A stretch of DNA of 64,000 bases from Acidobacteriota bacterium (GCA_039191605.1 JBCCXL010000017.1:19457-83456); one strand, 5' to 3'. Counted from the stretch's first letter, positions 14,376 through 64,000 are shown. Notes: generated from the letters alone by a model not told the origin. Numbers and translations: made by a program.

Positions 14376-14438
14376 GCTTTGGCTTTCAGGGCTTGGCTTT
14401 CAGGGCTTGGCTTTCAGGGCTTGGCTTTCAGGGCTTGC
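14376..14438. repeat. 15-bp tandem direct repeat x4 (ggctttcagggcttg), intergenic
   Basis: Four perfect or near-perfect copies, read directly from the sequence. Confidence 0.9.
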
Positions 14439-14974: not shown

Positions 14975-15064
14975 AGACCTGCTTTCCTACCACATTTTCG
15001 CCGAGGCCAGCACTCCGCCCTCGGCCCTGCTAGGATCGGCGCCCGAGGGAAGGAGAAGTACAGG

Positions 15065-16048: not shown

Positions 16049-16174
16049 CTCGGACCCCTCGCCATCGGCCTCATTGCACTTCGTCCAGAGGGTGAGTCAG
16101 CTCAGAGGAGCGTTCAACAGAGGCCGTGTAGCCAGAACCCTTTAGCGCCTGAAGTAGCTAGCAGAACCGGTTAG

Positions 16175-16456
16175 CTAGCAGCTGGCTCCCCAATTGGGGT
16201 GGTCCAGGGTGAAGCCTTCGTCACCGTCGTAATCCAGGGTGGCTCCATCCAGTTCCCGGGCGGCCATCGCGTCGAGCAGCAGCGGCAGGCCCGACGAGGT
16301 CTGGAGACTGAGATCGTCTTCCTGGGGGCGGCGGGAAACGTGGAGCCGAAAGCCCATGGCGCCGCAGCCACCGGCGAAGGCGATGCGCAGCGTTTCGTCG
16401 TCCCGCAGGTCGCGGTGGGCGGCATGGTGGGCGGCTTCGGTGCAGTGAATCCTCAT
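16175..16456 (-). CDS. HesB/IscA-like Fe-S cluster insertion protein (tentative)
   Basis: A 94-aa protein. MRIHCTEAAHHAA...LRIAFAGGCGAMGFRLHV resembles the IscA fold. The C-terminal Cys context is atypical. Confidence 0.45.
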   Translation of the reverse strand: MRIHCTEAAHHAAHRDLRDDETLRIAFAGGCGAMGFRLHVSRRPQEDDLSLQTSSGLPLLLDAMAARELDGATLDYDGDEGFTLDHPNWGASC

Positions 16457-16819
16457 AGTTATTGAGTTTATCTCAGCGCTTGCCGCGGGGCATTTGGCAC
16501 CTCTTTGGGGGCGATTCAGACCGCCATCTCTTCTCTGCCTTCGGAAGCCTTGAATAGGGTCTAGTGGGTAGTGGTAGCATGTTCTTCTGGGGCCCCGACG
16601 CAGCGTGCAAACGCTCCGTCGCCGCTCTCCTGGCGTCTGGTCCAGCGCTCTGAGACGCAACGCCGGTTCCGCAACTTAGACGCGCTGCGGCGTCCAAATC
16701 GGCGATCTCAAAGCTCAATCGAAGTCCAGGCGGTTTGCAGTCTGAGCTCTCCGTCCGACCCCTCAACCCCTTAGCGGTACCTCACCTGCATCGCCGAACA
16801 CACTGCATCGCCGAGAATC

Positions 16820-18703
16820 ATGTCCTCAAGTACGCTATCCCCAAGCTCCCCTTCCGCCGAACCGCCCCAGCTGCAGGTTGTCGATGACGTCGTGATCCGC
16901 TTTGCCGGAGACTCCGGCGACGGGATGCAGCTCACCGGGAACCAGTTCACCAATACCTCGGCCCTGGTGGGGAACGATCTATCCACGCTGCCAGACTTTC
17001 CCGCCGAAATCCGCGCACCAGCGGGCACTTTGCCCGGTGTCTCGGCATTCCAGGTGCGGATTGCGGACTTCGACATTCACACTCCGGGGGACGCGCCGGA
17101 CGTGCTGGTGGCGATGAATCCGGCGGCGCTGAAGAAGAACATCGGGGAGCTCAAGCCCAACGGCGTGATCATCGCCAACACGGATGAGTTCAACACTCGG
17201 AACTTCAAGAAGGCAAAGATCGAGTCGAATCCCCTGGAGGACGGCTCGCTGGACGGTTTCCGGCTCTTTCAGGTGGAGCTCACCACCCTGACCCGGAAGA
17301 CCCTGGAGTCGAGCCCGCTGGATACTCGCTCCAAGGACCGCTGCAAGAATCTCTTCGCCTTGGGGATGGTGTATTGGCTGTTCTCCCGGCCGCTGGAGAC
17401 CACCGAACAGTGGTTGGGCAAGAAGTTCGCGTCGAAGCCGGAGGTGGTCGAGGCGAACCTCGCTGTGCTGCGGGCCGGCTGGAATTACTGCGATATCACC
17501 GAAGCGTTCCAGATTCGCTATCAGGTGGAGCCCGCGCAGCTGGAGACGGGAACCTACCGGAACATCCACGGGAATAGCGCGATGGCGCTGGGGCTGGTGG
17601 CTGCCGGCCATCTCAGCGGTCTCCAGCTGTACCTCGGGGCCTACCCCATCACTCCCGCCAGCGACCTGCTCCATGAGTTGGCGCGGCACGCGAACCACGG
17701 GGTGATGACCTTCCAAGCGGAGGATGAGATCGCCGCCGTATGTGCTGCGATCGGTGCTTCCTATGGCGGGCATCTCGGCGTCACCGCGTCCAGCGGCCCA
17801 GGGATCGCCCTCAAAGGCGAGGCGATGAATCTGGCGGTGATGGTGGAGCTGCCCCTCGTGGTCGTCAACGTGCAGCGCGCGGGCCCCTCTACCGGAATGC
17901 CGACGAAGACCGAGCAGAGCGATTTGCTGCAGGTGCTCTTTGGACGGAATGGCGATTCGCCAGTGCCGGTGCTGGCGGCGGCGACGCCCGCCGACTGCTT
18001 CGATGTTGCCATCGAGGCCTGTCGCATCGCCCTGCGCTACATGGTGCCGGTGATGGTGCTCTCGGATGGCTACATCGCCAATGGCTCGGAACCCTGGAAG
18101 CTGCCGGATCCCGAGGTGCTGCCGGATTTGCGGCCGACTTTTCAGCCGCCGCCGGAGGAAGACAGTCCGCCCTTCGCTCCCTATTCCAGGGATGCCGAAA
18201 CCCTGGCCCGACCCTGGGCTCGACCGGGAACTCCTGGGCTGGAGCATCGCATCGGCGGCCTCGAGAAGGAAATGGGTAGCGGGAATGTCTCCTACGATCC
18301 CGCGAACCATGGGCAGATGACTCGGCTTCGGGCGGACAAGGTGGCTAGAGTGGCCCGCGAGATTCCTCCTCTCGAAGTGGATGGCCCCGACAGCGGTCGA
18401 TTGTTGGTTCTCGGTTGGGGGAGCACTGCAGGCCCGATCCAGGCGGCGGTGCGCATCGCGCGCAAGGAAGGGATCCCGGTTTCCCGAGCTCATTTGCGCT
18501 ACATCAACCCGTTCCCGTCGAACCTTTCCGAGGTTCTGAGCCGTTTCGAAACGGTGCTGGTTCCGGAGATGAACTCTGGACAGCTCGCTCTGCTACTGAG
18601 GGCCCACACCCTCAAGCCGGTGGAGAGTTATCCCAAGGTCGAGGGACGCCCCTTTACCCGAGACGAGATCGTCACCAAGATTCGCGAGCTCTTGGCAAGC
18701 TAA
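16820..18703 (+). CDS. korA: 2-oxoglutarate/2-oxoacid:ferredoxin oxidoreductase alpha subunit
   Basis: VIRFAGDSGDGMQLTGNQF and the pyruvate-flavodoxin oxidoreductase core domain are present. It is followed by the beta-subunit gene. Confidence 0.85.
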   Translation: MSSSTLSPSSPSAEPPQLQVVDDVVIRFAGDSGDGMQLTGNQFTNTSALVGNDLSTLPDFPAEIRAPAGTLPGVSAFQVRIADFDIHTPGDAPDVLVAMNPAALKKNIGELKPNGVIIANTDEFNTRNFKKAKIESNPLEDGSLDGFRLFQVELTTLTRKTLESSPLDTRSKDRCKNLFALGMVYWLFSRPLETTEQWLGKKFASKPEVVEANLAVLRAGWNYCDITEAFQIRYQVEPAQLETGTYRNIHGNSAMALGLVAAGHLSGLQLYLGAYPITPASDLLHELARHANHGVMTFQAEDEIAAVCAAIGASYGGHLGVTASSGPGIALKGEAMNLAVMVELPLVVVNVQRAGPSTGMPTKTEQSDLLQVLFGRNGDSPVPVLAAATPADCFDVAIEACRIALRYMVPVMVLSDGYIANGSEPWKLPDPEVLPDLRPTFQPPPEEDSPPFAPYSRDAETLARPWARPGTPGLEHRIGGLEKEMGSGNVSYDPANHGQMTRLRADKVARVAREIPPLEVDGPDSGRLLVLGWGSTAGPIQAAVRIARKEGIPVSRAHLRYINPFPSNLSEVLSRFETVLVPEMNSGQLALLLRAHTLKPVESYPKVEGRPFTRDEIVTKIRELLAS

Positions 18704-26220: not shown

Positions 26221-26290
26221 CTGGCCATGCTGAGACTGGCCATGCTGAAACTGGCCATTCTGAAACTGGCCATTCTGAAACTGGCAACCT
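26221..26290. repeat. 15-bp tandem direct repeat, about 4.5 copies (ctggccatgctgaaa), intergenic
   Basis: Read directly. It also generates a spurious antisense ORF beginning MPVSEWPVSEWPVSAWPVSAWP. Confidence 0.9.
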
Positions 26291-27200: not shown

Positions 27201-27603
27201 GGGAAGTCTCCTTGAGGGATTTTCTATGAGAAGGACCAGGGCCTAAGGAAAGATGTAGGGGTGCGACACTTTGCGGTCTGTCGTCGATTCAAATCAGTTG
27301 GCTGGTAGCCGAGAGCAGCCTTAGGAGGCTAAGCTCAACGCGAGTTCTGCCGTGGTGACTCGACTCACCTTGGCTCAGCTATTTATCATTATCTGTGGAC
27401 GAAGCTCGAGGTTCCTTAGCAACTATCTACGGCGGGGAGGGCCTGAAGTTCGTCGCAGCTCTCACTGCTTACGAGCTTCGGCCGCTGGCTGCGGCTGTCG
27501 CAACCCATGCGGCGCCAACGTCCTCAATCGCGGCTCGGGCTCATTCTCGGTGCTTCGAAGCCCTTTGGGGTATCAGGAGTTTCCCGGACCCCGTTCCCGG
27601 GCC

Positions 27604-27642
27604 CTGAGCTCCCGGAGCCTGAGCTCCCGGAGCCTCACCTCC
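27604..27642. repeat. 15-bp tandem repeat x2 plus a partial copy (ctgagctcccggagc)
   Basis: Read directly. It lies upstream of the gene at 27680. Confidence 0.7.
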
Positions 27643-29898: not shown

Positions 29899-30240
29899 GG
29901 CAGCTGCGATGGGGATACAGGGGGAAGCCTGCGGAGGTGGAAGAAGCTTCCTGGGAGTCTCCACCGTGAAGCGGTGGATGGATTCCTCCGGGTGACTCCC
30001 GAGGGCTAGACCAGTGTACCGCCTGAGCTTCTCGCGGAGCCGGCTCGGGAGCCTTACGGAGGGTCGCGAGAGGAGCCTGAAACCTTCGGATCTTCCTCCT
30101 CGTTGTCCTCTATATCCCCCTGCTGGTATTCGCTGGCGTCGGGGCGGAGGATGAGCGCGCCGTCGCCGACCTGAGGATCGGGAGAGTAGCGGCGAGGTAC
30201 AATAGAAAGGTCGGCTCGGCCGACGACACTTCCCGCTGAA

Positions 30241-30349
30241 GATCACAGCGATCTGAAGATCGCGGCGTTTGAAGATTGCGGCATTCGAAGATCATCGCGT
30301 CTGAAGAGCACCGCGTCTAAAGAGCATCACGTCTGAAGATCACCGCATA
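30241..30349. repeat. 16-bp tandem direct repeat, about 6.8 copies (tgaagatcgcggcgtt and variants)
   Basis: Read directly. It lies 75 bp upstream of the SPFH gene start. Confidence 0.9.
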
Positions 30350-51421: not shown

Positions 51422-54400
51422 GTGTCTTTAATGTGCCCTGTGTCTCCTAATCTAGGGTCAGCTGACGTCGATGGGCTCCTGGGGCTCGACGCCCTGGAGT
51501 CGGCGGTTGATGAGCACCCTAAATTAGGGCCGACGGTGGTGCATCGAGCGCGCCTCGAGGCCCAGCCCCGGCGTTCGGGGACTTTGGAGAAGGAGCTGCC
51601 GGAAGCGCTGCTGCAGATCCTGCGGGAGCGCGGGGTGGAGAATCTGTGGAGCCACCAGGCGGAGGCCCTGGATCTCGCCCGCCGGGGAGAGGACGTGCTG
51701 GTGACGACCCCCACCGCGTCCGGCAAGTCCTTGGTCTTTCAGCTGCCGGTGCTGGAAGAGGCGCTGAAGGGAGGGGAGGGCAGGGCTCTTTGGCTCTTCC
51801 CCCTCAAGGCCTTGGCCCAGGATCAGCGCGCCAAGCTGATGGAGATGGCCTCTGCCGTGGGGGTAGAGGAGAACTTCTGCGCCATCTATGACGGCGATAC
51901 GCCGCGCTCGCTGCGGCCGAAGATCCGCGCCGATCCGCCGCGGGTGCTGATCACCAACCCCGACATGCTGCACTTGGGTTTGCTGGCCCACTGGAATAGC
52001 TGGCGGCCCTTTTTCGCCTCGCTGCGCTGGCTGGTGCTGGACGAGCTGCACACCTATCGCGGCGTTTTCGGCAGCCACTTTCATCACGTGCTGGCGAGGC
52101 TCCAGCGCTTGTGTGCTCGGCTCGGCGCTCGCCCCGCGGTGATCGCCTCCTCCGCTACCGCCGACAACGCTGAGAGCTTCGCCGCGACCCTGATTCGGCG
52201 CCAGCTCACCACCATCGAGACCAGCGGCGCCCCGCGGGAGGCCCGCCGCTTCGTGCTGCTGCGCCCCTCCGCCAGCCCCTACACCGCGGCCCTGGACCTG
52301 CTCTGCCTGTGCCTGGAGCACGGCATGAAGACCATCGTCTTCACCAAGGCCCGGCGCATCACCGAGCTGCTCTATTCCTGGCTGCGGCGGCGGGATCCGG
52401 CGCTGGCGGCGCGGGTGCGCTCCTATCGGGCGGGCTTCCTGCCGCAGGAGCGCCGGCGAATCGAGGGCCGCCTGGCTTCGGGGGAGCTGGATGGGGTGAT
52501 CTCCACCTCGGCGCTGGAGATGGGGATCGACATCGGAGGCCTGGATGCCTGCATTCTGGTGGGTTACCCCGGCAGCGTGATGGCCACCTGGCAGCGCAGC
52601 GGCCGGGTAGGGCGCAGCGGGCGGGAATCCCTCACCGTGATGGTGGCGCTGCCGGATGCTCTGGACCAATACTTCCTCGATCACCCCCAGGAGCTGCTGG
52701 AGCGGCCCTGCGAGCGGCTGATCATCAACCCGAGGAACCGCCCGGTGGCGGAGGCCCACCTGCGCTGTGCGGCGGCGGAGCTGACGCTTTCCCGGGAGCT
52801 GGACGAGGATTACCTGGCCGACCAGGAAGAGGCGGTGGAGGCTCTGGTGGCGGCAGGAGATCTGCTGGAGGACGCCTCCGGCAGCGAGCTCTTCTGCGTT
52901 CGCCGTCGGCCCCACCGAGATGTCGCTCTGCGCGGCAGCGGCGGGACCCTCGAGGTGCGCCTGGATGGTGGCGAGGGAGCGGTGGTCGGCACTCTGGACG
53001 CCGGCCGAGCGCTGCGGGAGGCGCACCCCGGGGCGATCTATCTTCACGGCGGGCGCTCCTTTCGAATCGAGGCGCTGGATCTAGACTCCCAGCGCGCCCT
53101 GGCGGTGGCGGAAGAGGCGGATTACTTCACCACGCCGATGGCCCATAAGGAGACGGAGATCCTGGAGGTCCTGGAGCGGCGGGACGATGGTCCCCTCACC
53201 GCCTGGTTGGCGAGGCTGCAGGTGCGGGAACAGGTCACCGGCTACGAGCGCAAGCGGCTGCTGGATCAGGAGGTGCTCACCCGGCGGGACCTGGTGATGC
53301 CGAAGACCGAGATGGAGACGGTGGGGCTGCTCTTCGCCGCGGGGCCCGCCATCGAGGATGCCCTGAGGCGGGCGGAGCAGGGCTTCATGGGGGCGCTCCA
53401 CGCTTCGGAGCACGCCGCGATTTCTCTGATGCCGGCCTTCGCTCTGTGCGATCGCGGGGATATCGGCGGCATCTCGATCCCCTTCCACCCCCAGGTGGGA
53501 GCCGGGGCGGTGTTCATCTACGACGGGCATCACGGCGGCATGGGGCTGGCGCAGGAGGCCTTCCAACGCTTGCCGGAGCTGCTGTTGCGGGTGCGGGAGC
53601 TGCTGGACGCCTGCCCCTGTGAAATCGGCTGTCCCAGCTGTATCCAGAGCCCGAAGTGCGGCAACGGGAATCGACCCCTAGACAAGGCCGGAGCGGCCCA
53701 CCTTCTGCGCCTGCTGCTGGCGGAAGAGGCCCTTCCGGAGCCTTCTGATCCGCGCCTGGAGATCACCTTCGCGGCGCCGGAGGACGAGTCCAAGAAAGGC
53801 GAGGAAGGGGCCTCGGCCCCCGCCTGGGGAGGGATTCTTCGAGAGCCGGGGGCGAAGGTGGATTCGGCTCCGGTGGAAGAGCCCGCAGCGGTTGCGCAGC
53901 GCACTCTGCCGGTGGGAGAGCTCTCTCATCGCGAGGGTTCACGGTGCGGTAGTGAAGGGGGCCCGGCGGCGGTCGGCGCGTCGACGAGCCCCGAGGTGCC
54001 TAAGGCGAAGGCTGGATCATCGAAGACCGGCTCATCGAAGAAGGGGACATCCAAAGCTGGCTCATCCAAGGGTGGCTCATCCAAGAGCGGGCCATCGAAG
54101 GCCGTCTCGTCGGGGTCTGCGTCTCCAAGCCCTGCGTCTCCAAGCCCTGGGCCGTCTGGATCCGCGTCGTCGGGTTCTGGCGACTTACCTCTCACCGTGC
54201 TTTTCGACCTCGAGACGAAGCGCTCGGCGCAGGAGGTGGGGGGGTGGAATCGAGCCCACCGCATGGGCATCGCCATCGGCGTCGTCTGCTTCCTGGAGGA
54301 AGGCCGATTGGAGGTCTATCCCGAGGATCGGGTGGGGGAGCTTCACGCCGATCTCCGCCGGGCTTCTCTGGTGATCGGCTTCAACAGCCGGCGCTTCGAT

Positions 54401-54727
54401 TACGCGGTGCTCTCCGGCTATACCGGGGAGGACTACAGCCGCACCTTACCGACGCTCGATCTGCTGGAAGACCTGCAACGGCGCATCGGTCGCCGGGTGA
54501 GCCTCGATAGCCTCACCGCCGCCACTCTCGGCGCCAAGAAGAGCGCCGACGGGCTACAGAGCCTGGAATGGGTGAAGCAGGGGCGGCTGGACCTGGTGGA
54601 ATCCTATTGCCGCCGCGACGTCGAGCTGCTGCGAGACCTCTATCTCTTCGGGCGCCGGGAGGGCTACGTCCAGTTCACCCGCCGCAAGACCGGCGGCGAG
54701 GTGGAGAGAGTGGAGGTCGATTGGTGA
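51422..54727 (+). CDS. MrfA/YprA-like DEAD/DEAH-box helicase with DUF1998 (4-Cys) domain, fused through a Ser/Gly/Lys repeat linker to a DnaQ-like 3'-5' exonuclease (MrfB/YprB-like)
   Basis: Helicase motifs: TPTASGKS (motif I) and VLDELH (motif II). DUF1998 Cys cluster: CPCEIGCPSCIQSPKCGN. C-terminal exonuclease motifs: FDLET (Exo I), FNSRRFDYAVL (Exo II) and YCRRDVELLRDLY (Exo III). Confidence 0.8.
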   Translation: MSLMCPVSPNLGSADVDGLLGLDALESAVDEHPKLGPTVVHRARLEAQPRRSGTLEKELPEALLQILRERGVENLWSHQAEALDLARRGEDVLVTTPTASGKSLVFQLPVLEEALKGGEGRALWLFPLKALAQDQRAKLMEMASAVGVEENFCAIYDGDTPRSLRPKIRADPPRVLITNPDMLHLGLLAHWNSWRPFFASLRWLVLDELHTYRGVFGSHFHHVLARLQRLCARLGARPAVIASSATADNAESFAATLIRRQLTTIETSGAPREARRFVLLRPSASPYTAALDLLCLCLEHGMKTIVFTKARRITELLYSWLRRRDPALAARVRSYRAGFLPQERRRIEGRLASGELDGVISTSALEMGIDIGGLDACILVGYPGSVMATWQRSGRVGRSGRESLTVMVALPDALDQYFLDHPQELLERPCERLIINPRNRPVAEAHLRCAAAELTLSRELDEDYLADQEEAVEALVAAGDLLEDASGSELFCVRRRPHRDVALRGSGGTLEVRLDGGEGAVVGTLDAGRALREAHPGAIYLHGGRSFRIEALDLDSQRALAVAEEADYFTTPMAHKETEILEVLERRDDGPLTAWLARLQVREQVTGYERKRLLDQEVLTRRDLVMPKTEMETVGLLFAAGPAIEDALRRAEQGFMGALHASEHAAISLMPAFALCDRGDIGGISIPFHPQVGAGAVFIYDGHHGGMGLAQEAFQRLPELLLRVRELLDACPCEIGCPSCIQSPKCGNGNRPLDKAGAAHLLRLLLAEEALPEPSDPRLEITFAAPEDESKKGEEGASAPAWGGILREPGAKVDSAPVEEPAAVAQRTLPVGELSHREGSRCGSEGGPAAVGASTSPEVPKAKAGSSKTGSSKKGTSKAGSSKGGSSKSGPSKAVSSGSASPSPASPSPGPSGSASSGSGDLPLTVLFDLETKRSAQEVGGWNRAHRMGIAIGVVCFLEEGRLEVYPEDRVGELHADLRRASLVIGFNSRRFDYAVLSGYTGEDYSRTLPTLDLLEDLQRRIGRRVSLDSLTAATLGAKKSADGLQSLEWVKQGRLDLVESYCRRDVELLRDLYLFGRREGYVQFTRRKTGGEVERVEVDW
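54016..54120 (+). repeat. 15-bp tandem repeats x7 inside the helicase gene, encoding the (G/S)SSK-type linker
   Basis: The DNA reads gctcatcgaagaccg / gctcatcgaagaagg / ggacatccaaagctg ... This encodes GSSKTGSSKKGTSKAGSSKGGSSKSGPSKAVSS. Confidence 0.8.
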
Positions 54728-54883
54728 GATCCGAGGGAAAATCTCGGATCTCGGCTGGGCACCCCTAACCTGGAATGCTGCCGCTGACGGCATGCCGCCG
54801 CCTGGATTTTTCTGAATTGCTTCCGCCGACCGACTTCCGCTGAAAAGGGGGAGCGGAGACCGGCCCGACCGACTCAGCTGCAC

Positions 54884-55243
54884 TCAGAGGTTGTCGACCA
54901 CCTCGAGGAGCTGCTGCAGGTCGAAGGGCTTCTTGATGTACGCCGCGGCGCCCCCGTCCAGCGCTCGCTGGGTGTCTTCTTCCTTGCCCTCGGTGGACAC
55001 CACCACCACGGGAATCCCCGCCAGGGCGTCGTCGGACTTGACTCGGCCGAGGAACTCCAGGCCGTTCATGTTGGGCATGTTGATGTCGAGCAGGATGGCG
55101 TCCACATCCGGGTGGTCGCTGAGCATGCGGAGCCCCTCCACGCCATCATTGGCGTGGACCAGATCGTATTGACGCAGCATCACGCCGAACATCTTGTGGA
55201 TCAGCTTCGAGTCGTCGACGATGAGGAACTTTTTCTGCGCCAC
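54884..55243 (-). CDS. cheY: CheY-like single-domain response regulator
   Basis: FLIVDDS, LLDINMP, VVVVSTEG and KPF are the REC signatures (Asp, Asp, Thr, Lys). Confidence 0.85.
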   Translation of the reverse strand: MAQKKFLIVDDSKLIHKMFGVMLRQYDLVHANDGVEGLRMLSDHPDVDAILLDINMPNMNGLEFLGRVKSDDALAGIPVVVVSTEGKEEDTQRALDGGAAAYIKKPFDLQQLLEVVDNL

Positions 55244-55881
55244 GGTGAATGGGCCTCCAATTCACGGCCTCTGAAGGTGTCCGGCGGCCAGATCTAGCTC
55301 AGTGGGGTTTTGAAATGCCCTGAGAACGATCTGCTAGGGGTCTGTAGCCCCGGCGGTCGGCGGACGTTGGCCATTTCGACAAACCGCTCGATTCCTGCCC
55401 CTGGAGTAGGCAGCCAGGGAGCGCTCTCCCTGGGACGTTCTTTGGCGTCCTATGCCGTTGGGGAATGGAATCGAGGGAAGGGACCAGGCAAGAGCGCCTG
55501 GAATCGCCGGTAGACTAGCCTAAGGCCTGTTTCTACGCAAGCTTCGACCTGCGCTGCGATCCCTCTCCGAAGGGGTTGTTGGGAGGGCGCTGCCGGATCC
55601 TTCTTAGGCGAGCCTCAGACCTTCATCGACGAGTGCTCGTCTCTTGACATGGGGCGATGGCGGCGGGAGACTCTTCGTCTCTGTTTCGACACGGTTCCCA
55701 GCTTTGCGCCGCGCATCTCGCGGGGCCCGCCTCTCGATGTCCGGTTTCGTCTCTTCGCGCCCCAGCCGCGCCATTCGGTGCCTTCGCTTCGAGCTTCCTT
55801 TCGCACCGGAGGCTCCGTCGGCCGCCCTAGGGACCCTCCGTCGTCGGGACCTTTCACCCATTCCTCAAGGTTGAGAGCGCC

Positions 55882-57591
55882 ATGGACAGCGCATTCAAGG
55901 AGTTATTAGAAGACTTCGTCCTGGAGGCGCGAGAGCGCGCCGACACGGTAGAGGAGATGCTGCTGTCGCTGGCGGAGGCCAGTGCCGAGGAGCGAGAGCA
56001 GAAGGTCGCCCGGGCGAAGCGCCAGCTCCACACTCTGAAGGGCAATTCGGGGATGATGGGCTTTGGCGAGCTGCAGACGCTGGCCCACGAGATCGAGGAC
56101 GCCGTCGAGGCGCTGGATCTGGAGTCGCCGGAGATCGACGAGCTCCTGCAGCAGCTGGATCGCTTTCGGCTGCTGTTGCGCCAACAGGTCGCGAGTCAGC
56201 TGGAGGGAGGGGAAGACTCCGACGAGGACAGGACCCGGGCCGGTGACGAGCCCTCCGAAGCGGACGGGGTCTCGGCTGGGGAATCCGCTGAACAGGAGAC
56301 CGGTTCCGACGACGAAGGAGCCGAGGCCCGGGCGGATAGCCCCGGCGAGGATCCGCAGGAGCAAGAGCAGGAGCAGGAGGAGGTCAGCCGAGAGCTCGCC
56401 TCCGGCGGCGTTCGGGTGCTCTTCAGCGAGCTGGACGGCCTGGTAGAGCTGCTGGCGGAGGTTCTGCTCTATCGCAACCGCCTGGGGGATTCCCTCGGAC
56501 AGGTTCGCCAGCTGCTGCCGGGGGAGAACCGGGAACAGAGCGACGCCTGGGACGAGAGCGAGGCGGTGCGTCAATCTCTGGAGCAGGTGCTGGATTTTCT
56601 TCAGGAGCGCATTCTGCGGCTGCGTATGGTGCCGCTGGCGACCCTCTTCCGCCATCTGTCTCGCATCGTTCATGACGAGTCCCGTCGGGAGCAGAAGAAG
56701 GTGCGCTTCGTCACCGACGGTGGCGATACCCCGCTGGACAAAGCTCTTCTGGAGCTCGCCAGCGAGGCCCTCGGACACCTGGTGCGCAACGCCGTGAACC
56801 ACGGGGCGGAGCGCCCCGCGGAGCGCAAGGCGGCGGGGAAGGACGAGACCGCCGTGCTGCGGCTCTCGGCGGCGGTGAAGGGCCAGGAGGTCCATATCGA
56901 GGTCGAGGATGACGGCGGCGGGATCCACTACGAATCCCTGGAGGCGCTAGCGCGAGCGCGCGGCTTGCCCCACCGCACCCGGGCGGATCTCGACGCCCTG
57001 ATTTTCGAGGCGGGGGTTTCCACCCGTTCATCGACCTCCCTCTCGGCGGGGCGCGGCGTCGGCCTGGCGGCGGTGGCTTCGGCGGTGCGGCGCCACGGCG
57101 GGCGCATCGACCTTTCCTCGATGCCGGGGGAGGGGACTCGCTTCCTGCTTCGCCTGCCTCTGTCGGTCTCCATCACCCGGGCTTTGCTGCTGCGGGTGGA
57201 TGGCGAGGTCTACGCTCTGCCGCTGGGGGCGGTGATCGAGAGCCTGCGCCTGGAGATCGACGCCCTGGAGCGGGTCGGCGGGCGAGAGATCTTCCGCTGG
57301 CGGGGGCAGCTGGTGCCGGTTCTCGATCTCGGACAGTGGTTCCGCACCGCTATCGATCCACGAAGTCAGGGCTTCGTGGTGATCGTGGAGGCCCTGGGGC
57401 GCCACCGTGCGGTGGTGGTAGACGAGCTGGTGGGGATCCGGGACATCGTGGTGAAAGGCCTCGATCCCCTGCTCGGCTCTCCGCCGGGACTCTCCGGCTC
57501 CACCATCCTCGGCGATGGGCGAGCGGTGCTGATTCTCGATCCTTCGGCGCTCACCGAGCAGATCTCGACAGATTCGGCGGCGGTGGGGTGA
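55882..57591 (+). CDS. cheA: CheA-type histidine kinase (Hpt-dimerisation-HATPase-CheW)
   Basis: Hpt: QLHTLKGNSGMMGF. HATPase: LVRNAVNHGAE, DDGGGI and GRGVGL. The C-terminal CheW-like domain is present. Confidence 0.9.
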   Translation: MDSAFKELLEDFVLEARERADTVEEMLLSLAEASAEEREQKVARAKRQLHTLKGNSGMMGFGELQTLAHEIEDAVEALDLESPEIDELLQQLDRFRLLLRQQVASQLEGGEDSDEDRTRAGDEPSEADGVSAGESAEQETGSDDEGAEARADSPGEDPQEQEQEQEEVSRELASGGVRVLFSELDGLVELLAEVLLYRNRLGDSLGQVRQLLPGENREQSDAWDESEAVRQSLEQVLDFLQERILRLRMVPLATLFRHLSRIVHDESRREQKKVRFVTDGGDTPLDKALLELASEALGHLVRNAVNHGAERPAERKAAGKDETAVLRLSAAVKGQEVHIEVEDDGGGIHYESLEALARARGLPHRTRADLDALIFEAGVSTRSSTSLSAGRGVGLAAVASAVRRHGGRIDLSSMPGEGTRFLLRLPLSVSITRALLLRVDGEVYALPLGAVIESLRLEIDALERVGGREIFRWRGQLVPVLDLGQWFRTAIDPRSQGFVVIVEALGRHRAVVVDELVGIRDIVVKGLDPLLGSPPGLSGSTILGDGRAVLILDPSALTEQISTDSAAVG

Positions 57592-57595
57592 GCCG

Positions 57596-58132
57596 ATGAG
57601 CGCAACTCCCGAAGTAGGCGCTAGCGCCTCTGCCCTGTCGCCGACCCTGGCATCGGGCTCAGCCCAGGAGCCCGCCGAAGAGAGCCGGGCACAGTCTCCC
57701 TGGGTACTCTGCGAAAGCGGAGGGATGGCCTTCGCCGTCGATCTGGATCGGGTGGTGGAGGTCTTTGGCGCTTCCTCTCTGCTGCCGGCTCCCGACGACG
57801 CCCCGGAAGCGGTGATCGCCATCGCCCAGGGAGGCGGCCTGCGGGTTCCGGTGGTGTCTTTAGCTCGCCAGCTGGGGGTGGAGGAGGCGGTGGAGGCGAA
57901 TCGGCGGCGAGTGCTGGTGGTGTCCTCCCAGGGTCGCGCCATCGGTCTGGAGGTGGATCGGGTGCGCAGCATTCTGGCCCTGGAGCGCGCCGGCCGGCAG
58001 CCGGTACCGAGGGTTCTAGCCGGCATCAGCGGCGGGCTTCCGGCCATTGCTGGCTTCGCTTTTCACCAGCAGCGCTGGCTGATGTTGTTGGAGGTCGACG
58101 GTCTGCTCTCGCCGCGATGGGGCCGGTCTTGA
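57596..58132 (+). CDS. cheW: CheW-like coupling protein
   Basis: WVLCESGGMAFAVDLDRVVEV and the downstream beta-sandwich pattern. The start lies 4 nt after the cheA stop. Confidence 0.7.
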   Translation: MSATPEVGASASALSPTLASGSAQEPAEESRAQSPWVLCESGGMAFAVDLDRVVEVFGASSLLPAPDDAPEAVIAIAQGGGLRVPVVSLARQLGVEEAVEANRRRVLVVSSQGRAIGLEVDRVRSILALERAGRQPVPRVLAGISGGLPAIAGFAFHQQRWLMLLEVDGLLSPRWGRS

Positions 58133-58565
58133 TAGGCTCGCCAGCCTGGCTCGCGGGAAGGGATCGAAGGAGCGGCTCTCGGTCCGATGAATCCCTTGCC
58201 CGAGACCATCGGTTGGCTTCCTTCCTGCACTGCTTTCCCCTACCTTCTCTCGTGGCGGCCATCGGCGCCGCGATCCGGGTCTCTCATCCCCTGCGTCCCG
58301 CAGATGAATCCTGCATCCACGGCGCCCCTCGGGGCCTGTCGACGGTGGTCCCGACGGAGATTTCCGCTCTTCGCGGGGTCCTGCGGCAGCCCAAGGCCTG
58401 CGCTCTCTAGGGAGCCGGGCCATTCCGCAGCTGCGGTCCTCGGGTCCTCTCGTTTCGACCTTCCCGGGCTCAAAGATCCTGCAGGTAGCGATGACAGAAG
58501 ATGGGCAGGACAGAAGACGGATCGGCAGAAGAGCTTCAAGCATCGGCATCTCAGACTTCGAAATT

Positions 58566-58700
58566 CAAAGACATCGACGGCCAAGACAGTGATGGCCAAG
58601 ACAGTGATGGCTAAGACAGTGATGGCTAAGACATCGACGGCCAAGAAAACGACAGTCAAGAAAACGATAGATAAGACAGCGACAGTCAAGACATCGACAT
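58566..58700. repeat. 15-bp tandem direct repeat x9 (ccaagacagtgatgg and variants), between cheW and the HEAT-repeat gene
   Basis: Read directly. The spurious ORFs over it encode KTVMAKTVMAKTV repeats. Confidence 0.9.
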
Positions 58701-58872
58701 CCCTGGGAGAGCGCCGCGGTGCACCTTCGCCGCGACGCAGCTTCAGCAGGTGGATTGTTCACCCGACTTTCCTCCTAGTGGTTCCAGCGGCGGTGGTTCC
58801 GGGGACCATGCTCCGGCGCCCACCCCGAGCCCACCGATCGATAGTGACGACGTAGCGAGAGGATCATCGACC

Positions 58873-60789
58873 ATGGCCCAATCCAATCCCCAGAGCGAAC
58901 CCAGCTGGGAGGAGTGCATCGAGCTACTCGAGCGCCTGCCCTCTATGTCCGTGCCGGAGCGTGTCGAGGCCATCGCGCTTCTCGTGCGCAACTCCAGTCC
59001 CGGAATCCGGGGGCGGGCTCTGCGGATGGGGGCTGCGGCCCTCTCCGACGACGTCCTCACCAGCTACTTGCGCAACGACGATGACGGCGTGCTGCGCAAC
59101 GCCGGTCTCGAGATGCTCAAGATGCGGGGTAATCGCGGCTTTTCCCTCGCTATCCACCTGCTCAAGGACCCGGACTACGACGTCGCCCTGCAGGCGGTGC
59201 TGATCCTCGACCACCTCAAGGATCCCCGCGCCCTCGAGGCGCTGCGGGGCCAGCTCCGCCACGAGGACATCAACGTCGTGCAGGCGGTGATCGTCGCTAT
59301 CGGTCACCTCGGGGACGCTCGCACCATTCCCGACCTGCTGCCCTACCTGGAAGGGGAATCGTGGCTGCAGGTAGCGGCGGTCGAGGCGCTGGGAGATATT
59401 CGCTCGCCGGTGGCGGTGCCTCATCTCGCCCAGCTGCTGACGGATCTGATGGTGGGGCCGATGGCCGCCGAGGCGCTGGCGCGCATCGGTGGCGAAGAGG
59501 CCTACCGCTTCCTCGCCGAGCACTGGCTGCGCTTCCGCCAGGAGCTGGACACGGAGACCACCCTGGGCCTGCTGGCCCACGTGCTGGAGGGGCTGCCGAA
59601 GTTCCCGGAGGAGGCCGAGGGGCTGCGCCCCGCGCTGGCGCAGCAGCTTCAGGGCGAGAGCGCCTCGATCCGCCTGCCGGCGGCGCGCTGTCTGCTGGCC
59701 CTGGGGCCCGGCAGCGAAGATCGCGCGGCGCTGGAGCAGCTGGTCGACCAGCAGCTGGATCCGCTGCTGCTGCCGGCCTGTCTGTCCGGGCGCCGCGATC
59801 TCATCGCCCGCCTGCTGCTCTCGCCGGATCAGCGCCGCGCCTGGGGCTTCCTGCTCTGCGCCCGCTTCCCGGAGCACATCCCCACCGAGGAGCTGGTGAC
59901 GGCTCTCTCCCGGCCGATGGAGCCGGAGTGGCTGGAGCTCTTGGTGAGGACCCTGTCGAAGGTGGAGAGCCGGCGGGTGGCGTCCGCCCTGCTGGACCTC
60001 TACCGCTCCCTCGGCAGCGGCGAGCGCTCGGCGCTGGCGCCGGTGCTCACCGCCCACGGCAGCCACCTGCGAACCCTGCTCAGCGAGCGAGACGACCTCC
60101 AGACCAAGACTCGGCTGGTGCTCTCGGTGCTGCTGGAGGAGCGGGTGGAGACCGCGGCGGCGGAGATTCAGCAGCTGCCGGAGGAAGACCGTCTCGAAGT
60201 GTTGGCGCAGATCACCGATCGCTCCGCCCTCACCCGGCTGCTGCCCTGGCGCCAGTGGATCGAACTCAGCCCCGACCGCTATGGCCCCATCGCCGCCGAG
60301 GTGGCGGTTCACGGCGGCCCCCGGGACCTGCGGCCGCAGCTGCGCTCCCTGCTGGAGCAATTCCCCGGCCCAGAGCTGGTGCGGGCGATGGGCGAGCTGG
60401 GGGATTCGGAGAGCGTTCCGACGCTAGTGGCCCTGCTGCAAGGCGGGGACGGCGCGCTGGATCTCATCGTGCTGGAATCCCTGGGGCGCATCGGCGGACC
60501 CCAGGTGCGGCGCACCCTGCGGGATGTGGCGGAGGGCAGCGGGGACGCCAAGCGGGCCCGCATCGCGTACCGCGCCCTCTCGCTCTGCGCCACCGATGAG
60601 GACGACGCCTTCTTCCGCGATGCGGCGGATCACGGAGATTGGTATGTGCGCTTGGCCTGTGCCGAGGTCCTCGGCCGGTTCCAGCGGCCGGAGAATCTCT
60701 CGGTGCTGGCTCAGCTAGCCTCGGACCCGGTCTCCATCGTCGCCCAGCGGGCGATGGCTCTGCTCGAATCGGAGGGTGTCGGCAAGTGA
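58873..60789 (+). CDS. HEAT/PBS-lyase-like repeat protein of the chemosensory cluster
   Basis: Recurrent ...R..A...LG......V..L..LL.D.. HEAT-like units (VPHLAQLLTD, VPTLVALLQGGD, DWYVRLACAEVLGR). Start trimmed to MAQSNPQ. Confidence 0.7.
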   Translation: MAQSNPQSEPSWEECIELLERLPSMSVPERVEAIALLVRNSSPGIRGRALRMGAAALSDDVLTSYLRNDDDGVLRNAGLEMLKMRGNRGFSLAIHLLKDPDYDVALQAVLILDHLKDPRALEALRGQLRHEDINVVQAVIVAIGHLGDARTIPDLLPYLEGESWLQVAAVEALGDIRSPVAVPHLAQLLTDLMVGPMAAEALARIGGEEAYRFLAEHWLRFRQELDTETTLGLLAHVLEGLPKFPEEAEGLRPALAQQLQGESASIRLPAARCLLALGPGSEDRAALEQLVDQQLDPLLLPACLSGRRDLIARLLLSPDQRRAWGFLLCARFPEHIPTEELVTALSRPMEPEWLELLVRTLSKVESRRVASALLDLYRSLGSGERSALAPVLTAHGSHLRTLLSERDDLQTKTRLVLSVLLEERVETAAAEIQQLPEEDRLEVLAQITDRSALTRLLPWRQWIELSPDRYGPIAAEVAVHGGPRDLRPQLRSLLEQFPGPELVRAMGELGDSESVPTLVALLQGGDGALDLIVLESLGRIGGPQVRRTLRDVAEGSGDAKRARIAYRALSLCATDEDDAFFRDAADHGDWYVRLACAEVLGRFQRPENLSVLAQLASDPVSIVAQRAMALLESEGVGK

Positions 60790-61631
60790 TCCGAGAGATC
60801 GCGCCGCTGACGCGCGAGGAGCAGGCCCTCTTCAACGAGGTGCTCTCCAAGGAGTTCGGGCTCTATTTTCCGGAGTCCAAACGGCAGATCCTCGAGTCTC
60901 GCCTCGAGCCGAGGGTGCGTGAGCTGCGGCTGCGTCGGTTCTTCGACTACTACCTCAAGGTGCAGGTGGATCTCGCCCAGGAGGCGCCGTATCTGGTGCG
61001 CCTGGTGACCAATAACGAGACCTACTTCTTCCGCGAGAAGGCTCAGTTCGAGGCGCTCTTCGGCCCTGCCCTGCAGGATTGGGTGGCCGGGGCGGTGACG
61101 CCGGGTGTGGTGCGCATTCTCTCTGCCGGCTGTTCCTCCGGGGAGGAGCCCTACACCCTGAACATCTACGCCAAGCAGGCGCGCTTTCGCCTCGGCACCA
61201 CCGAGATTCAGGTCGAGGCCTTCGATATCGACACCGAGCGCCTCCACATGGCGCGCAGCGGGATCTATCGGGAGCGTTCCTTGCGGGCGATGTCCGACGA
61301 GCTGGTGGAGCGCTACTTCCGCACCCACGACAACGGGTTGTGGGAGCTCAAGCCGGCCTTTCGCCGCGGGGTGAATTTCCGCGAGGGCAACATCATCACC
61401 AGCGATGCCTACCGCACCTCGGTGGGCTACGACGCGATCTTCTGCCGCAACGTGCTGATCTACTTCTCCGAGGTGGCCCTTCACCAGGCGATCGAGAATT
61501 TCGCCAGCGCCCTGCGCCCCGGCGGTCTGCTCTTTCTCGGGCATTCGGAATCCATCATCGGGCTGTCCCGTCACCTGGAGACCGTGCGCTTGGATAACTG
61601 CATCGCCTATCGCAAGGTAGCGGAGCGGTGA
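60786..61631 (+). CDS. cheR: CheR-type chemotaxis protein methyltransferase
   Basis: The N-terminal helical domain plus ETYFFRE, RILSAGCSSGEEPYTL and IFCRNVLIYF SAM-MTase motifs. The GTG start overlaps the HEAT gene stop (GTGA). Confidence 0.85.
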   Translation: MIREIAPLTREEQALFNEVLSKEFGLYFPESKRQILESRLEPRVRELRLRRFFDYYLKVQVDLAQEAPYLVRLVTNNETYFFREKAQFEALFGPALQDWVAGAVTPGVVRILSAGCSSGEEPYTLNIYAKQARFRLGTTEIQVEAFDIDTERLHMARSGIYRERSLRAMSDELVERYFRTHDNGLWELKPAFRRGVNFREGNIITSDAYRTSVGYDAIFCRNVLIYFSEVALHQAIENFASALRPGGLLFLGHSESIIGLSRHLETVRLDNCIAYRKVAER

Positions 61632-62845
61632 ATAGCTCCTCCAGCAGCGGGCCGCTGCGCGTTGCGGTGGTGGATGACTCGAGCTTCGTGCGCAAGGCCA
61701 TCAGCCGCATGCTGGAGAACGACGAGCGCATCGATATCGTCGGACAGGCGGCGAGCGGTGAGGAGCTGCTCACCCATCTGCTGGAATGGGCGCCCGACGC
61801 CATCACGCTGGATCTCTCGATGCCCGGCATGGGCGGCCTGCAGACCCTCGATCGGGTGATGGCGGTGCGCCCGACGCCGGTGATCATCCTCTCTACCCAC
61901 TCGGCGAAAGATGCTCCGCTGACCATCGAGGCGCTGCACCGCGGCGCCATGGACTTCATCGACAAGCAGCAATACTCGCTGGTGGATTTCGAGTCTCTGC
62001 GGGCGGTGATCCTCGAGAAGCTGCTTTCGGTGCGCTCGGCGAGTCTGCCGTCGCCGCGCCGGGGCGGTACCGGTGAGCAGCCGGCGGCGAAGACCAGCCC
62101 GCGGTCTTCGAAGCCCACGGCGCGGGGAAAATTGGGGAAAAGCCCCCAGTCCCAATCCCAGTCTCGATCTCGAACCGGGCCCCAATCCCGGGCACAGCCC
62201 CGGACTCGAGGCGAGGCCGGCGCCGTGCGCCGAGCCCCGGTGCAGCCCTCCCCGCGCTTCGACGTGCTGCTGGTGGGGGCCTCCACCGGGGGGCCGCCGA
62301 CGATCCAGAAGCTGCTAGAAGATCTCGGCGCTACGGTGTCGGTCCCGGTGCTGGTGGTGCAGCACATGCCCAAGGGGTTCACCCGAGCCTTTGCCGACCG
62401 CCTCAACTCTCACCTCGAGGTCAGCGTGCGGGAAGCCTCCGACGGCGAGCGATTGGAGCTCTCCACGGTGTATCTCGCCCCCGCGGGCATGCATCTGCGG
62501 GTCGCCCGCCGCGAGGATCAGCTCTTCGCCCAGCTCACCGAGAGCCCCCGCCACCTCACCCACCGCCCCTCGGTGGACGTGCTCTTCGAATCCGCCGCGC
62601 GGGTGGTGGGACGCCGCTGTCTCGCCGCCCTGCTCACCGGCATGGGCAGCGACGGTGCCCAGGGGATGGCCCGCATCGCCGATGCTGGAGGCTACACCGT
62701 GGTGCAGGATATGGAATCCTGCGTCGTCTACGGCATGCCGCGGGCGGCGAAGAATCTGCGAGCGGTGCGCGAAGAGCTCTCCCTGGACGTTCTCGGAGGA
62801 CGCCTCCAGCAGCTCCTCGGCGCTCCGCAGCCGGGCTCCGGGTAG
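61628..62845 (+). CDS. cheB: CheB-type methylesterase with N-terminal receiver domain
   Basis: REC: VAVVDDS, TLDLSMP and KQQ. CheB catalytic region: LLVGASTGGP, VLVVQHMPKGFT and GMGSDG. The GTG start overlaps the cheR stop. Confidence 0.9.
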   Translation: MNSSSSSGPLRVAVVDDSSFVRKAISRMLENDERIDIVGQAASGEELLTHLLEWAPDAITLDLSMPGMGGLQTLDRVMAVRPTPVIILSTHSAKDAPLTIEALHRGAMDFIDKQQYSLVDFESLRAVILEKLLSVRSASLPSPRRGGTGEQPAAKTSPRSSKPTARGKLGKSPQSQSQSRSRTGPQSRAQPRTRGEAGAVRRAPVQPSPRFDVLLVGASTGGPPTIQKLLEDLGATVSVPVLVVQHMPKGFTRAFADRLNSHLEVSVREASDGERLELSTVYLAPAGMHLRVARREDQLFAQLTESPRHLTHRPSVDVLFESAARVVGRRCLAALLTGMGSDGAQGMARIADAGGYTVVQDMESCVVYGMPRAAKNLRAVREELSLDVLGGRLQQLLGAPQPGSG

Positions 62846-63002
62846 TCCCGGGGGGACACGACGGCCACAGGCCTGAGGGGGGGCGACCTGGAGAGGTCTC
62901 GAGGGGTGAGTTCTGGGGCGATGGGTCTGCTAACATCCGCCGTGAGCTACCCCTTCCGAAGTCCCCCAATATCCCTCTGACCCTAGGAGCGTTCCTGCCG
63001 CG

Positions 63003-63680
63003 ATGGCCGCACGAAAGAAAGGCTCTTCCCGCTCTGCCTCCGCCGGATCCCGTTCCCGAGGCAAGGCCCCGGCGAAGAAGGACGAAGAACAGACCGTGAG
63101 CCAGGGCGAAGGTTCGGCGGACGAGGCGTCGTCAGAGGAGACGGCGCAGCCGGAGATCGACTCGGAGCTGGATCGGGTCTTTCAGCTGGCGGACGAGCTC
63201 AACGAGGCGGAGATCGAGCAGGAGGCACAGGAGAAAGCTAGCTCTTGGGTCACCTTCCGGGTAGCGGAGGAGATCTACGCCCTGCCGGTAGCGAGGGTGC
63301 AGGAGGTGATCAAGGTGGGGCCAGTGACGCCGGTGCCCCACACCCCGGTCTCGGTGCGCGGGGTCACCAACCTGCGAGGGCGAGTGCTGACGGTGGTGGA
63401 TTTGAGAATCCGCTTCGGCTTGGCGGAGAACGCCCTCAGCGAGCACCACCGGATCCTGGTGAGCCTCACCAGCAGCGGCCCGGTGGGGCTGCTGGTGGAC
63501 TCCGTCAGCCAGATGATCGCCGTGCGTCCCAGCGAGGTGGTGCCGCCGCCGGACGACGCCGCCACCGACGATGCGATTACCGGAGTGGTCTCTCAGCGCG
63601 ACGAGCTCACCTCTCTGCTCTCTCTAGAAGCTTTGCTACAAAGTCTGACCGCCGCCGCCAGCGCCAGTCACGGCGCCTAG
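63003..63680 (+). CDS. cheW: CheW-like protein with a charged N-terminal extension
   Basis: WVTFRVAEEIYALPVARVQEVIKVG...VRGVTNLRGRVLTVVDLR is a CheW domain. Confidence 0.7.
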   Translation: MAARKKGSSRSASAGSRSRGKAPAKKDEEQTVSQGEGSADEASSEETAQPEIDSELDRVFQLADELNEAEIEQEAQEKASSWVTFRVAEEIYALPVARVQEVIKVGPVTPVPHTPVSVRGVTNLRGRVLTVVDLRIRFGLAENALSEHHRILVSLTSSGPVGLLVDSVSQMIAVRPSEVVPPPDDAATDDAITGVVSQRDELTSLLSLEALLQSLTAAASASHGA

Positions 63681-63709
63681 TCGTCCCGCCCTCCGCAGCG
63701 CTATCTTTT

Positions 63710-63790
63710 GAGAGGCTATGTCTTGAGAGGCTTATGTCCTAGGCAGGCTATGTCCTGGGCAGGCTATGTCCTGGCGAGGCTGTGTCTTGG
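63710..63790. repeat. 15/16-bp tandem direct repeat, about 5 copies (ggcaggctatgtcct), intergenic after cheW
   Basis: Read directly. Confidence 0.85.
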
Positions 63791-63919
63791 GAAGAGATCT
63801 GGCCCCAGCAGGAGATGTCGTCCCAGCAGACCTGGGACTTCGCGGCGACCTCATTAATTGATCTCTTGGAGAGTGACTGAAGGTCCTCTTCATCGCATTC
63901 CCACGTCCGGAGAAAGCTC

Positions 63920-64000
63920 ATGGAATCACCTGATCAGCCCTCTTCTCCATCCGCTAGTTCGTCGCCTTCCTCGAGCTCGTCGGCTTCCTCTGGTTCGTCG
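63920..64000 (+). CDS. 5' end of a Ser/Pro-rich protein, truncated by the window edge
   Basis: An ATG follows GGAGAAAG. The sequence is MESPDQPSSPSASSSPSSSSSASSGSS. Confidence 0.3.
   Translation, partial: MESPDQPSSPSASSSPSSSSSASSGSS

Follow-up and report, generated by a model that had tools for sequence, protein, structure and literature searches.

A probable receptor-less derivative of the HEAT-type chemosensory operon in an Acidobacteriota genome

The chemosensory (che) gene cluster described here lies at positions 54,884 to 63,680 of a 64,000-nucleotide stretch of DNA from an Acidobacteriota bacterium (GCA_039191605.1, JBCCXL010000017.1:19457-83456), which we refer to throughout as the window and in which positions are counted from the first nucleotide. 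Genes were called from a six-frame listing of open reading frames (ORFs) together with Pfam scans over this 64-kb window. As shown in Table 1, the locus comprises seven ORFs, and the Pfam matches agree with a first-pass annotation of the same DNA, which had listed a divergent cheY, cheA-cheW, a gene for a HEAT-repeat protein, an overlapped cheR-cheB pair and a second cheW (cheW2) with a charged extension. All seven ORFs are full length, their catalytic residues are intact, and the G+C content at their third codon positions (GC3) is 0.75-0.90.

The products of these genes retain their catalytic and phospho-acceptor motifs. The translation of cheY shows the acid pocket (DD10-11, D53, T/S83-84, K104). 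CheA consists of an Hpt domain (P1), an acidic linker that replaces P2, the kinase core and a CheW-like P5 domain, and has neither a P2 nor a receiver domain; its phospho-His motif, HTLKG, is present, and it scores far below the cut-offs of the NCBIfam CheA equivalogs (271 bits versus 950 and 250 versus 793). CheB exceeds the cut-off of the NCBIfam CheB model (354.9 bits versus 293) and carries the motifs GASTGG, QHMP and GMGSDG as well as the phospho-acceptor Asp. The N-terminal extension of CheW2 is ∼80 aa long, rich in Lys, Ser and Glu, and of low complexity. For the HEAT gene, an upstream GTG was set aside as the start in favor of the ATG at 58873, which stands behind a ribosome-binding-like motif, GAGAGGA. 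The start of cheR was corrected from the junction sequence to the GTG at 60786, which overlaps the HEAT stop codon as GTGA, and the resulting 281-aa CheR fits the lengths found in relatives (278-283 aa). Because cheB in turn overlaps cheR by 4 nt, the junctions indicate that HEAT, cheR and cheB are translationally coupled.

Table 1. Features of the che locus and its surroundings (window coordinates; E values from Pfam)
Feature	Position	Strand	Description
STAND-like protein gene	4673-8482		AAA_16 + TPR protein, 1269 aa
MrfA-like helicase gene	51422-54727		DEAD/Helicase_C/MZB helicase, 1101 aa; adjoins cheY
cheY	54884..55243	-	single-domain response regulator, 119 aa, divergent from cheA; Response_reg 1.2e-24
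cheY/cheA divergent spacer	55244..55881	.	638 bp, apparently non-coding
cheA	55882..57591	+	histidine kinase, 569 aa; Hpt 1e-12, HATPase_c 1.7e-18, CheW 4.1e-27
cheW1	57596..58132	+	divergent CheW paralogue, 178 aa; CheW 3.6e-15
cheW1/HEAT spacer	58133..58872	.	740 bp, non-coding, holds 15-nt tandem repeat 58568-58698
HEAT-repeat protein gene	58873..60789	+	638 aa; HEAT_2 6.7e-38, HEAT_PBS 1.4e-16
cheR	60786..61631	+	methyltransferase, 281 aa; CheR 1.8e-49, CheR_N 3.4e-08
cheB	61628..62845	+	receiver + methylesterase, 405 aa; CheB_methylest 7.3e-60, Response_reg 1.1e-20
cheW2	63003..63680	+	canonical CheW, 225 aa; CheW 6e-34
Tandem repeat	63700..63789	.	16 nt x 5.7 copies, in 240-bp spacer between cheW2 and M28 peptidase gene; Tandem Repeats Finder
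M28 peptidase gene	63920-64000	+	start of gene; L001 2484-4991
14-16-nt repeat arrays	7354-7445, 14379-14437, 26221-26285, 27595-27635, 30236-30346, 54006-54149, 58568-58698, 63700-63789		Tandem Repeats Finder

The HEAT protein was modeled with AlphaFold2 (AF2) from a 56-sequence alignment. The model (predicted local distance difference test score, pLDDT, 94.3) is an all-helical solenoid of ∼41 helices. Foldseek searches with it against the PDB returned generic HEAT solenoids only (SF3b1, karyopherin-beta2, CAND1 and the designed alphaRep), and neither the model nor these searches revealed an enzymatic domain. NCBIfam models gave sub-threshold similarity to the NblB and CpcE repeats. As modeled, the protein looks like a protein-binding scaffold.

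We next considered the receptor, a methyl-accepting chemotaxis protein (MCP). The first-pass annotation had described the cluster as lacking an MCP gene, and this description stands: tblastn with the Tsr signalling domain found none in the 64-kb window (best E 1.4), phmmer with the MCP of a relative found none at the window locus, and none was seen with Pfam. An MCP just beyond the window, in the same operon, together with a flagellar-class CheA, had been named as the arrangement that would speak against a non-motility role. The downstream flank was read from a 7.3-kb Logan contig with an identical CheW2, reaching 5 kb past the window, and in these 5 kb there is no MCP either; the flank holds the gene of an 835-aa M28 peptidase, which starts at window position 63920, followed by that of a reprolysin-like protein. 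Flagellar and pilus genes, genes for CheZ, CheC, CheD or CheV, and a desaturase gene were all absent from Pfam scans over the window's large ORFs and from the Pfam records for the regions flanking related loci, and the desaturase link suggested at first is unsupported; the other large ORFs of the window encode housekeeping and miscellaneous proteins.

To place the cluster among its relatives, we compared 78 genome loci and several metagenome loci (referred to by L numbers where they have to be told apart), with gene order established by phmmer. The HEAT protein matches a protein of an Acidobacteriota metagenome-assembled genome at 100% identity and has 592 homologues; the best 120 of the 592 share 53-67% identity at a length of ∼632 aa and come mostly from Acidobacteriota/Thermoanaerobaculia. 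The dominant order, found at 38 loci, is cheY(-)|cheA-cheW-(signal-peptide protein of ∼150 aa)-MCP-HEAT-cheR-cheB, and the MCP-containing loci include metagenome-assembled genomes of Nitrospirota and Gemmatimonadales. The MCP at these loci is a transmembrane protein of ∼690 aa with HAMP and MCPsignal domains, and the cheW product carries a charged N-terminal extension. The window follows the pattern of this HEAT-type operon in that an orthologue of the ∼632-aa HEAT protein is followed by cheR-cheB, with cheA-cheW upstream and cheY divergent. Departures from the dominant order were of several kinds. In one sub-clade the MCP gene is displaced and lies, divergently oriented, upstream of cheA; two further small lineages (L024; L047 together with L053) likewise lack the MCP; and in ∼18 genomes (L043-L045, L049, L050, L052, L055-L059, L062-L066, L080, L081) the HEAT gene stands alone, the 10 kb around it being free of che genes, and its products form a monophyletic sub-family of ∼50% identity and the same length. 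Apparently, the HEAT scaffold also works outside a che operon.

The window itself belongs to a clade that comprises the window, L007, L008, L069+L076, L085, L086 and L087, thus at least seven genomes, all without an MCP; none was found in ∼170 kb sampled around seven clusters of this type. Its members share the order aminotransferase / signal peptidase / DEAD-MZB helicase / cheY / cheA-cheW1-HEAT-cheR-cheB-cheW2 / M28 peptidase. In a neighbor-joining tree built from the HEAT proteins, the MCP-containing loci are basal and widespread, and the window clade forms a single monophyletic group nested within them, indicating that the receptor-less state is derived. Within the clade, identity to the window proteins is 66-73% for CheY, 52-61% for CheA, 59-66% for HEAT, 65-67% for CheR, 58-62% for CheB, 43-47% for CheW2 and 31-39% for CheW1. 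Identities this low, together with a shared layout from which no gene has been lost, indicate that the arrangement is old and that every gene has been maintained. These comparisons show that the ancestral operon had the order cheY|cheA-cheW-(small secreted protein)-MCP-HEAT-cheR-cheB. In the clade of the window, the sensor module, made up of the secreted protein and the transmembrane MCP, has been lost, CheW1 has come to stand between cheA and HEAT, and the canonical CheW is now encoded last in the operon, as CheW2. Apart from its genome-specific repeat-bearing spacers, the window is an ordinary member of this receptor-less clade.

Two accessory genes of these loci deserve mention. The ∼150-aa protein encoded between cheW and the MCP gene (L004 7326-7778 and ∼25 other loci) has a signal-peptide-like N terminus and no Pfam match on record; the window clade has lost both this protein and the MCP, and the protein may partner the receptor in the periplasm. 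In L007, a second HEAT paralogue (14977-16932; L002 15544-17499) of 651 aa, 59% identical to the window HEAT protein, directly follows cheW2, at the position that in the window is taken by the 240-bp repeat-bearing spacer.

The two CheW proteins have different histories. CheW2 is 43% identical to the CheW of L004 and 27% identical to CheW1, and in the CheW tree it groups with the canonical, long-extension CheW proteins of the MCP-containing operons; on this evidence, CheW2 is orthologous to the CheW encoded behind cheA in the MCP-containing relatives. The CheW1 sequences form a separate, long-branched clade in the same tree and evolve fast (31-39% identity within the clade versus 59-73% for the neighboring genes). 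In CheW, Arg62 and Glu38 make a conserved salt bridge, and a functional signalling complex requires Arg62. Numbered by alignment to E. coli CheW, this NLRG-motif residue is present in 11 of 11 canonical CheW/CheW2 sequences, including the CheW2 of the window with its VRGVTNLRG motif, whereas six of the seven CheW1 sequences have replaced it (G/G/H/Q/H/T). Further, cheW1 and the HEAT gene are naturally fused in L007, where a single ORF (L002/L007 10001-12469, P0005, 822 aa), present in two assemblies, runs without a stop between '...REKGLGA' and 'MANQEE...'.

Taken together, we read the cluster as an intact, evolutionarily maintained, receptor-less derivative of the HEAT-type operon that is widespread in Acidobacteriota (Thermoanaerobaculia), and we put the probability of this reading, with the mechanism that follows, at roughly 0.6. 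CheA would autophosphorylate and pass the phosphate to the single-domain CheY and to CheB. CheW2 would couple CheA to at least one MCP encoded elsewhere in the genome, and CheR and CheB would methylate and demethylate those MCPs and thereby bring about adaptation. Because at least seven genomes have kept CheR, CheB and a canonical CheW, all with their motifs intact, a receptor encoded elsewhere is probably the most economical explanation of the missing MCP gene. The HEAT solenoid would act as a scaffold for protein-protein contacts, with CheW1 linking it to the kinase complex, a tether suggested by the tight coupling of the two genes and by their natural fusion in one relative, and, by analogy with CheY7-Cpc7 of Myxococcus, it could be a partner of phosphorylated CheY. 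The output would be a non-flagellar cellular function and not a motor switch; this, too, is suggested by analogy.

The most interesting feature of the cluster is an Arg62-less CheW1 that is coupled or even fused to a HEAT scaffold. The gain of this CheW1, its coupling or fusion to HEAT and the invariant coupling of HEAT with cheR and cheB together raise the idea that HEAT is physically part of the kinase complex through a CheW-like domain; if true, such a tether would clarify the wiring of the Che7- and Che8-type systems of Myxococcus and the roles of chemosensory systems in the phylum. The same features could be taken further, to the main rival of our reading, an array that does without MCPs, in which HEAT, docked via the Arg62-less CheW1, controls CheA, and CheR and CheB act on a non-MCP substrate, possibly HEAT itself. 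CheW1 occupies the place that the secreted protein and the MCP hold in the ancestral order, Arg62 is gone from CheW1 and kept in the canonical CheW, and the CheW1-HEAT fusion, the translational coupling of HEAT with cheR and cheB and the lack of any MCP in the ∼170 kb around the seven clusters would all suit such an array. However, CheW2 with its Arg62 intact is kept in those clade members whose contigs reach that far, which points to a conventional receptor partner, and CheR and CheB are not known to act on anything but MCP-type coiled coils. Moreover, in Myxococcus and Geobacter, genomes with MCP-less clusters also encode many orphan MCPs (PMC3945109, PMC2577667), and HEAT is equally conserved in MCP-containing clusters, so that its role predates the loss of the MCP. 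We therefore consider control of CheA by HEAT in place of an MCP improbable; if true, it would amount to a receptor-independent chemosensory array.

Several points weigh against the receptor-less derivative with a receptor elsewhere, as we have set it out. No MCP of the source genome has been seen, in a search that covered the 64-kb window and the 5-kb flank. The contact between CheW1 and HEAT is inferred from fusion and adjacency only, and in an AF2 model of the P0005 fusion the CheW part has a pLDDT of <50 and gives no docking information; the role given to HEAT is drawn by analogy. The window alone has a repeat-bearing 740-bp insertion between cheW1 and HEAT, which breaks the tight coupling seen in the relatives and might alter expression of the downstream genes. 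In addition, hhalign matched the HEAT family to the HEAT protein of the MCP-less Che8 system of Myxococcus with 97.3% probability (E 1.7e-11, 497 collinear columns), and an unrelated Chloroflexaceae HEAT protein used as a control reached 96.8% (E 2e-10); BLASTP of the window HEAT protein against that of Che8 gave only short, non-collinear repeat matches. Because the unrelated control scored nearly as well, orthology to the Che8 HEAT protein is not claimed.

A further point on this side is that the cluster could serve ordinary motility chemotaxis, flagellar or by type IV pili, with receptors and motor genes elsewhere and HEAT as an accessory that, for example, recruits CheR and CheB. The core of CheA, CheW, CheY, CheR and CheB is complete with intact motifs, and the invariant, coupled HEAT-cheR-cheB unit would suit an adaptation accessory. 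Nevertheless, the Pfam surveys described above brought to light no flagellar, pilus or CheZ/C/D/V genes, CheA has no P2 domain, and the described HEAT-containing Che7 and Che8/beta-group systems are tied to development, stress or matrix and not to taxis (PMC9040617, PMC2577667). A motility function is thus rather unlikely in our view, and we retain the proposed non-flagellar output of the receptor-less derivative.

The two long spacers of the locus were examined separately. The 740-bp spacer holds a repeat of 15 nt in 8.7 copies, as identified with Tandem Repeats Finder. ORFs in both spacers have GC3 values of 0.38-0.72 compared with 0.75-0.90 in the che genes, and none is gene-like. A candidate hidden gene, the 222-aa ORF at 58187-58855, carries an AKTVM repeat in frame and matches HC2 weakly, but was rejected as non-coding (GC3 0.65, GC1, the value for first positions, 0.55). 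The possibility that the 740-bp gap is a decayed MCP gene was also rejected, as tblastn yielded only noise (best E 0.5) for queries comprising 11 MCPs, the second HEAT paralogue and the small secreted protein. No similarity above chance to any related locus was found for the spacers with blastn or tblastx, and Rfam searches of 54500-64000 (E <= 1) returned only two sub-threshold chance matches, both inside the HEAT gene. A promoter scan found no sigma-70 consensus site in either spacer, and terminator-like sites were present only in the cheY/cheA spacer or inside genes, with none in the 740-bp spacer. The sequence of that spacer recurs with 100% identity in L089, a contig from an independent assembly, and is therefore not a scaffolding artifact.

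The first-pass annotation had called both gaps unusually long, and relative to other loci this is correct: the cheY/cheA spacer measures ∼225-395 bp in the relatives, and cheW1 and HEAT are there fused (L007) or separated by 10-68 bp (four genomes) or 259 bp (one genome). For the source genome, by contrast, such gaps are not exceptional. About a dozen of its spacers measure 300-1000 bp, and long repeat-bearing ones also lie beside housekeeping genes. Likewise, tandem repeats of 14-16 nt occur at eight sites of the window in 2-9 copies, with a different unit in each array, and most are intergenic; these repeats look like a genome-wide minisatellite habit. Because long spacers and repeats are so frequent elsewhere in the source genome, the long spacers are a trait of that genome and not of the chemosensory system.

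These results also bear on whether the cluster is a decaying remnant that lost its receptor, is being disrupted by repeat-bearing insertions and no longer functions in the source genome. The 740-bp insertion and the lengthened, 638-bp promoter region are peculiar to the window, CheW1 evolves fast, and no sigma-70-like promoter was found in the spacer, as such decay might have it. Yet all seven ORFs are full length with intact catalytic residues and GC3 values of 0.75-0.90, and a layout common to at least seven genomes at ∼52-73% identity (all proteins but the two CheW) speaks for long-term selection. Further, long repeat-bearing spacers are common in the source genome beside housekeeping genes, and the 740-bp spacer lacks a terminator-like site. 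Decay is thus a very remote prospect, and the cluster is better regarded as the intact receptor-less derivative proposed above.

Repeats of this kind also lie within genes of the window. The MrfA-like helicase gene next to cheY, whose synteny is kept in relatives, has 15-nt tandem repeats in frame toward its 3' end (54006-54149), and its product is ∼25-60 aa longer than the orthologues (1040-1075 aa). The gene for the STAND-like protein contains a 15/30-nt tandem repeat inside its coding region (7354-7445). On the other side of the cluster, in the window, L007, L076 and L086, cheW2 is followed in the same orientation by a gene for an M28 peptidase of ∼800 aa with a Ser-rich N terminus. Between cheW2 and this gene lie 30-44 bp in L086 and L076 and 240 bp, with a repeat, in the window, and the peptidase gene may be co-transcribed with the che operon.

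Overall, the cluster represents a variant of the HEAT-type chemosensory operon that became receptor-less independently, in a phylum where such signalling is little known. HEAT proteins recur in poorly understood che operons, such as Che7 and Che8 of Myxococcus and the beta group of Geobacter. The Acidobacteriota family, with its hundreds of orthologues, offers a natural evolutionary series of receptor-containing, receptor-displaced, receptor-less and stand-alone HEAT variants.

Compared with known systems, the window cluster is most similar to the MCP-containing operons of Acidobacteriota/Thermoanaerobaculia. The two share an orthologous HEAT protein of the same length (52-57% identity), orthologous CheY, CheA, CheR and CheB (48-63%) and a divergent cheY, and the single CheW of the MCP-containing operons, with its charged N-terminal extension, corresponds to CheW2 of the window. 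They differ in what lies between cheW and HEAT, where only the MCP-containing operons have the ∼690-aa HAMP-MCP and, usually, the ∼150-aa signal-peptide protein; only the window clade has the extra, Arg62-less CheW1 and a canonical cheW at the 3' end.

The cluster had been likened at first to Che7 of Myxococcus xanthus. Che7 has an associated fatty-acid desaturase, Des7, of which Pfam scans over the window's large ORFs and the flanks of relatives showed no equivalent. The che7 genes are MXAN_6965 cheY7, 6964 cheA7, 6963 cheW7, 6962 mcp7, one unlisted gene, 6960 cheR7 and 6959 cheB7 (PMC3945109), and Cpc7 of this system is a HEAT protein that binds CheY7 (PMC11514114, PMC9040617). This gene order is the ancestral order of the 38 MCP-containing relatives, in that the MCP gene lies between cheW and the HEAT or unlisted gene. 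Che7 and the window both have a HEAT/PBS-lyase-like protein in the che cluster (in the window its stop codon overlaps the start of cheR), a CheA without a receiver domain and a single-domain CheY. Cpc7 itself is probably MXAN_6961. In contrast, the window has no MCP, whereas Che7 has Mcp7, which is cytoplasmic, unlike the transmembrane, HAMP-containing MCPs of the relatives, and Cpc7 is described with 27 helices (PMC11514114) compared with ∼41 in the model of the window HEAT protein. The Che7-like label thus holds for the class of system, with HEAT next to cheR, but the closest analogue lies elsewhere, in Che8 and the Geobacter beta group.

The che8 cluster of M. xanthus (MXAN_4751-4759) contains two CheY genes, CheA8, two CheW genes, CheR8 and CheB8 and no MCP gene (PMC3945109), and Che8 is likewise described without an MCP elsewhere (PMC6194562); CheA8 cross-talks to an orphan regulator (PMC9040617). 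The cluster is conserved in Geobacter sulfurreducens (PMC2330069), and the beta-group clusters of Geobacter are common to M. xanthus, have no mcp gene and are of unknown function, with a preliminary link to the extracellular matrix (PMC2577667). By combining PMC2330069 and PMC2577667, we infer that Che8 and the beta group are the same. A profile search from remote members of the HEAT family reached a Pyxidicoccus HEAT protein; the equivalent Myxococcus locus is alike, and a homology search from the Pyxidicoccus protein was dominated by Che8-type orthologues. At L088 and L090 the order is RR124-CheA-CheW188-CheW174-small membrane protein-HEAT(658/659 aa)-CheR290-CheB345-RR126 (RR, response regulator; numbers are lengths in aa), without an MCP, and by its gene lengths this locus is Che8, whose HEAT protein is probably MXAN_4754. 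The Che8 HEAT protein (L088 10001-11977, L090 8001-9980; 658/659 aa) and the 125-133-aa membrane protein, encoded between cheW8a and cheR8, are not listed in the che tables of PMC3945109.

Che8 and the window share several traits: the cluster lacks an mcp gene, cheW is present twice, the response regulator is a single-domain CheY, a HEAT protein of ∼650 aa is encoded directly upstream of overlapping or adjacent cheR-cheB, and CheA has Hpt and P5 domains and no receiver. Only Che8 has two flanking CheY genes, the membrane protein before HEAT and both CheW genes between cheA and HEAT; both of its CheW proteins keep Arg62, and CheA8 is much longer (∼860 aa). Further, the window proteins are 33-40% identical to those of Che8 (L088) compared with 48-63% to those of the MCP-containing Acidobacteriota locus L004. 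Because the window is closer to L004 and its clade is nested among MCP-containing lineages, its MCP-less state is convergent with that of Che8. By analogy, then, the window cluster appears to look and work like Che8 but not to be its orthologue, and, of the systems described so far, the MCP-less Che8/beta group is its best analogue, with Che7 fitting less well.

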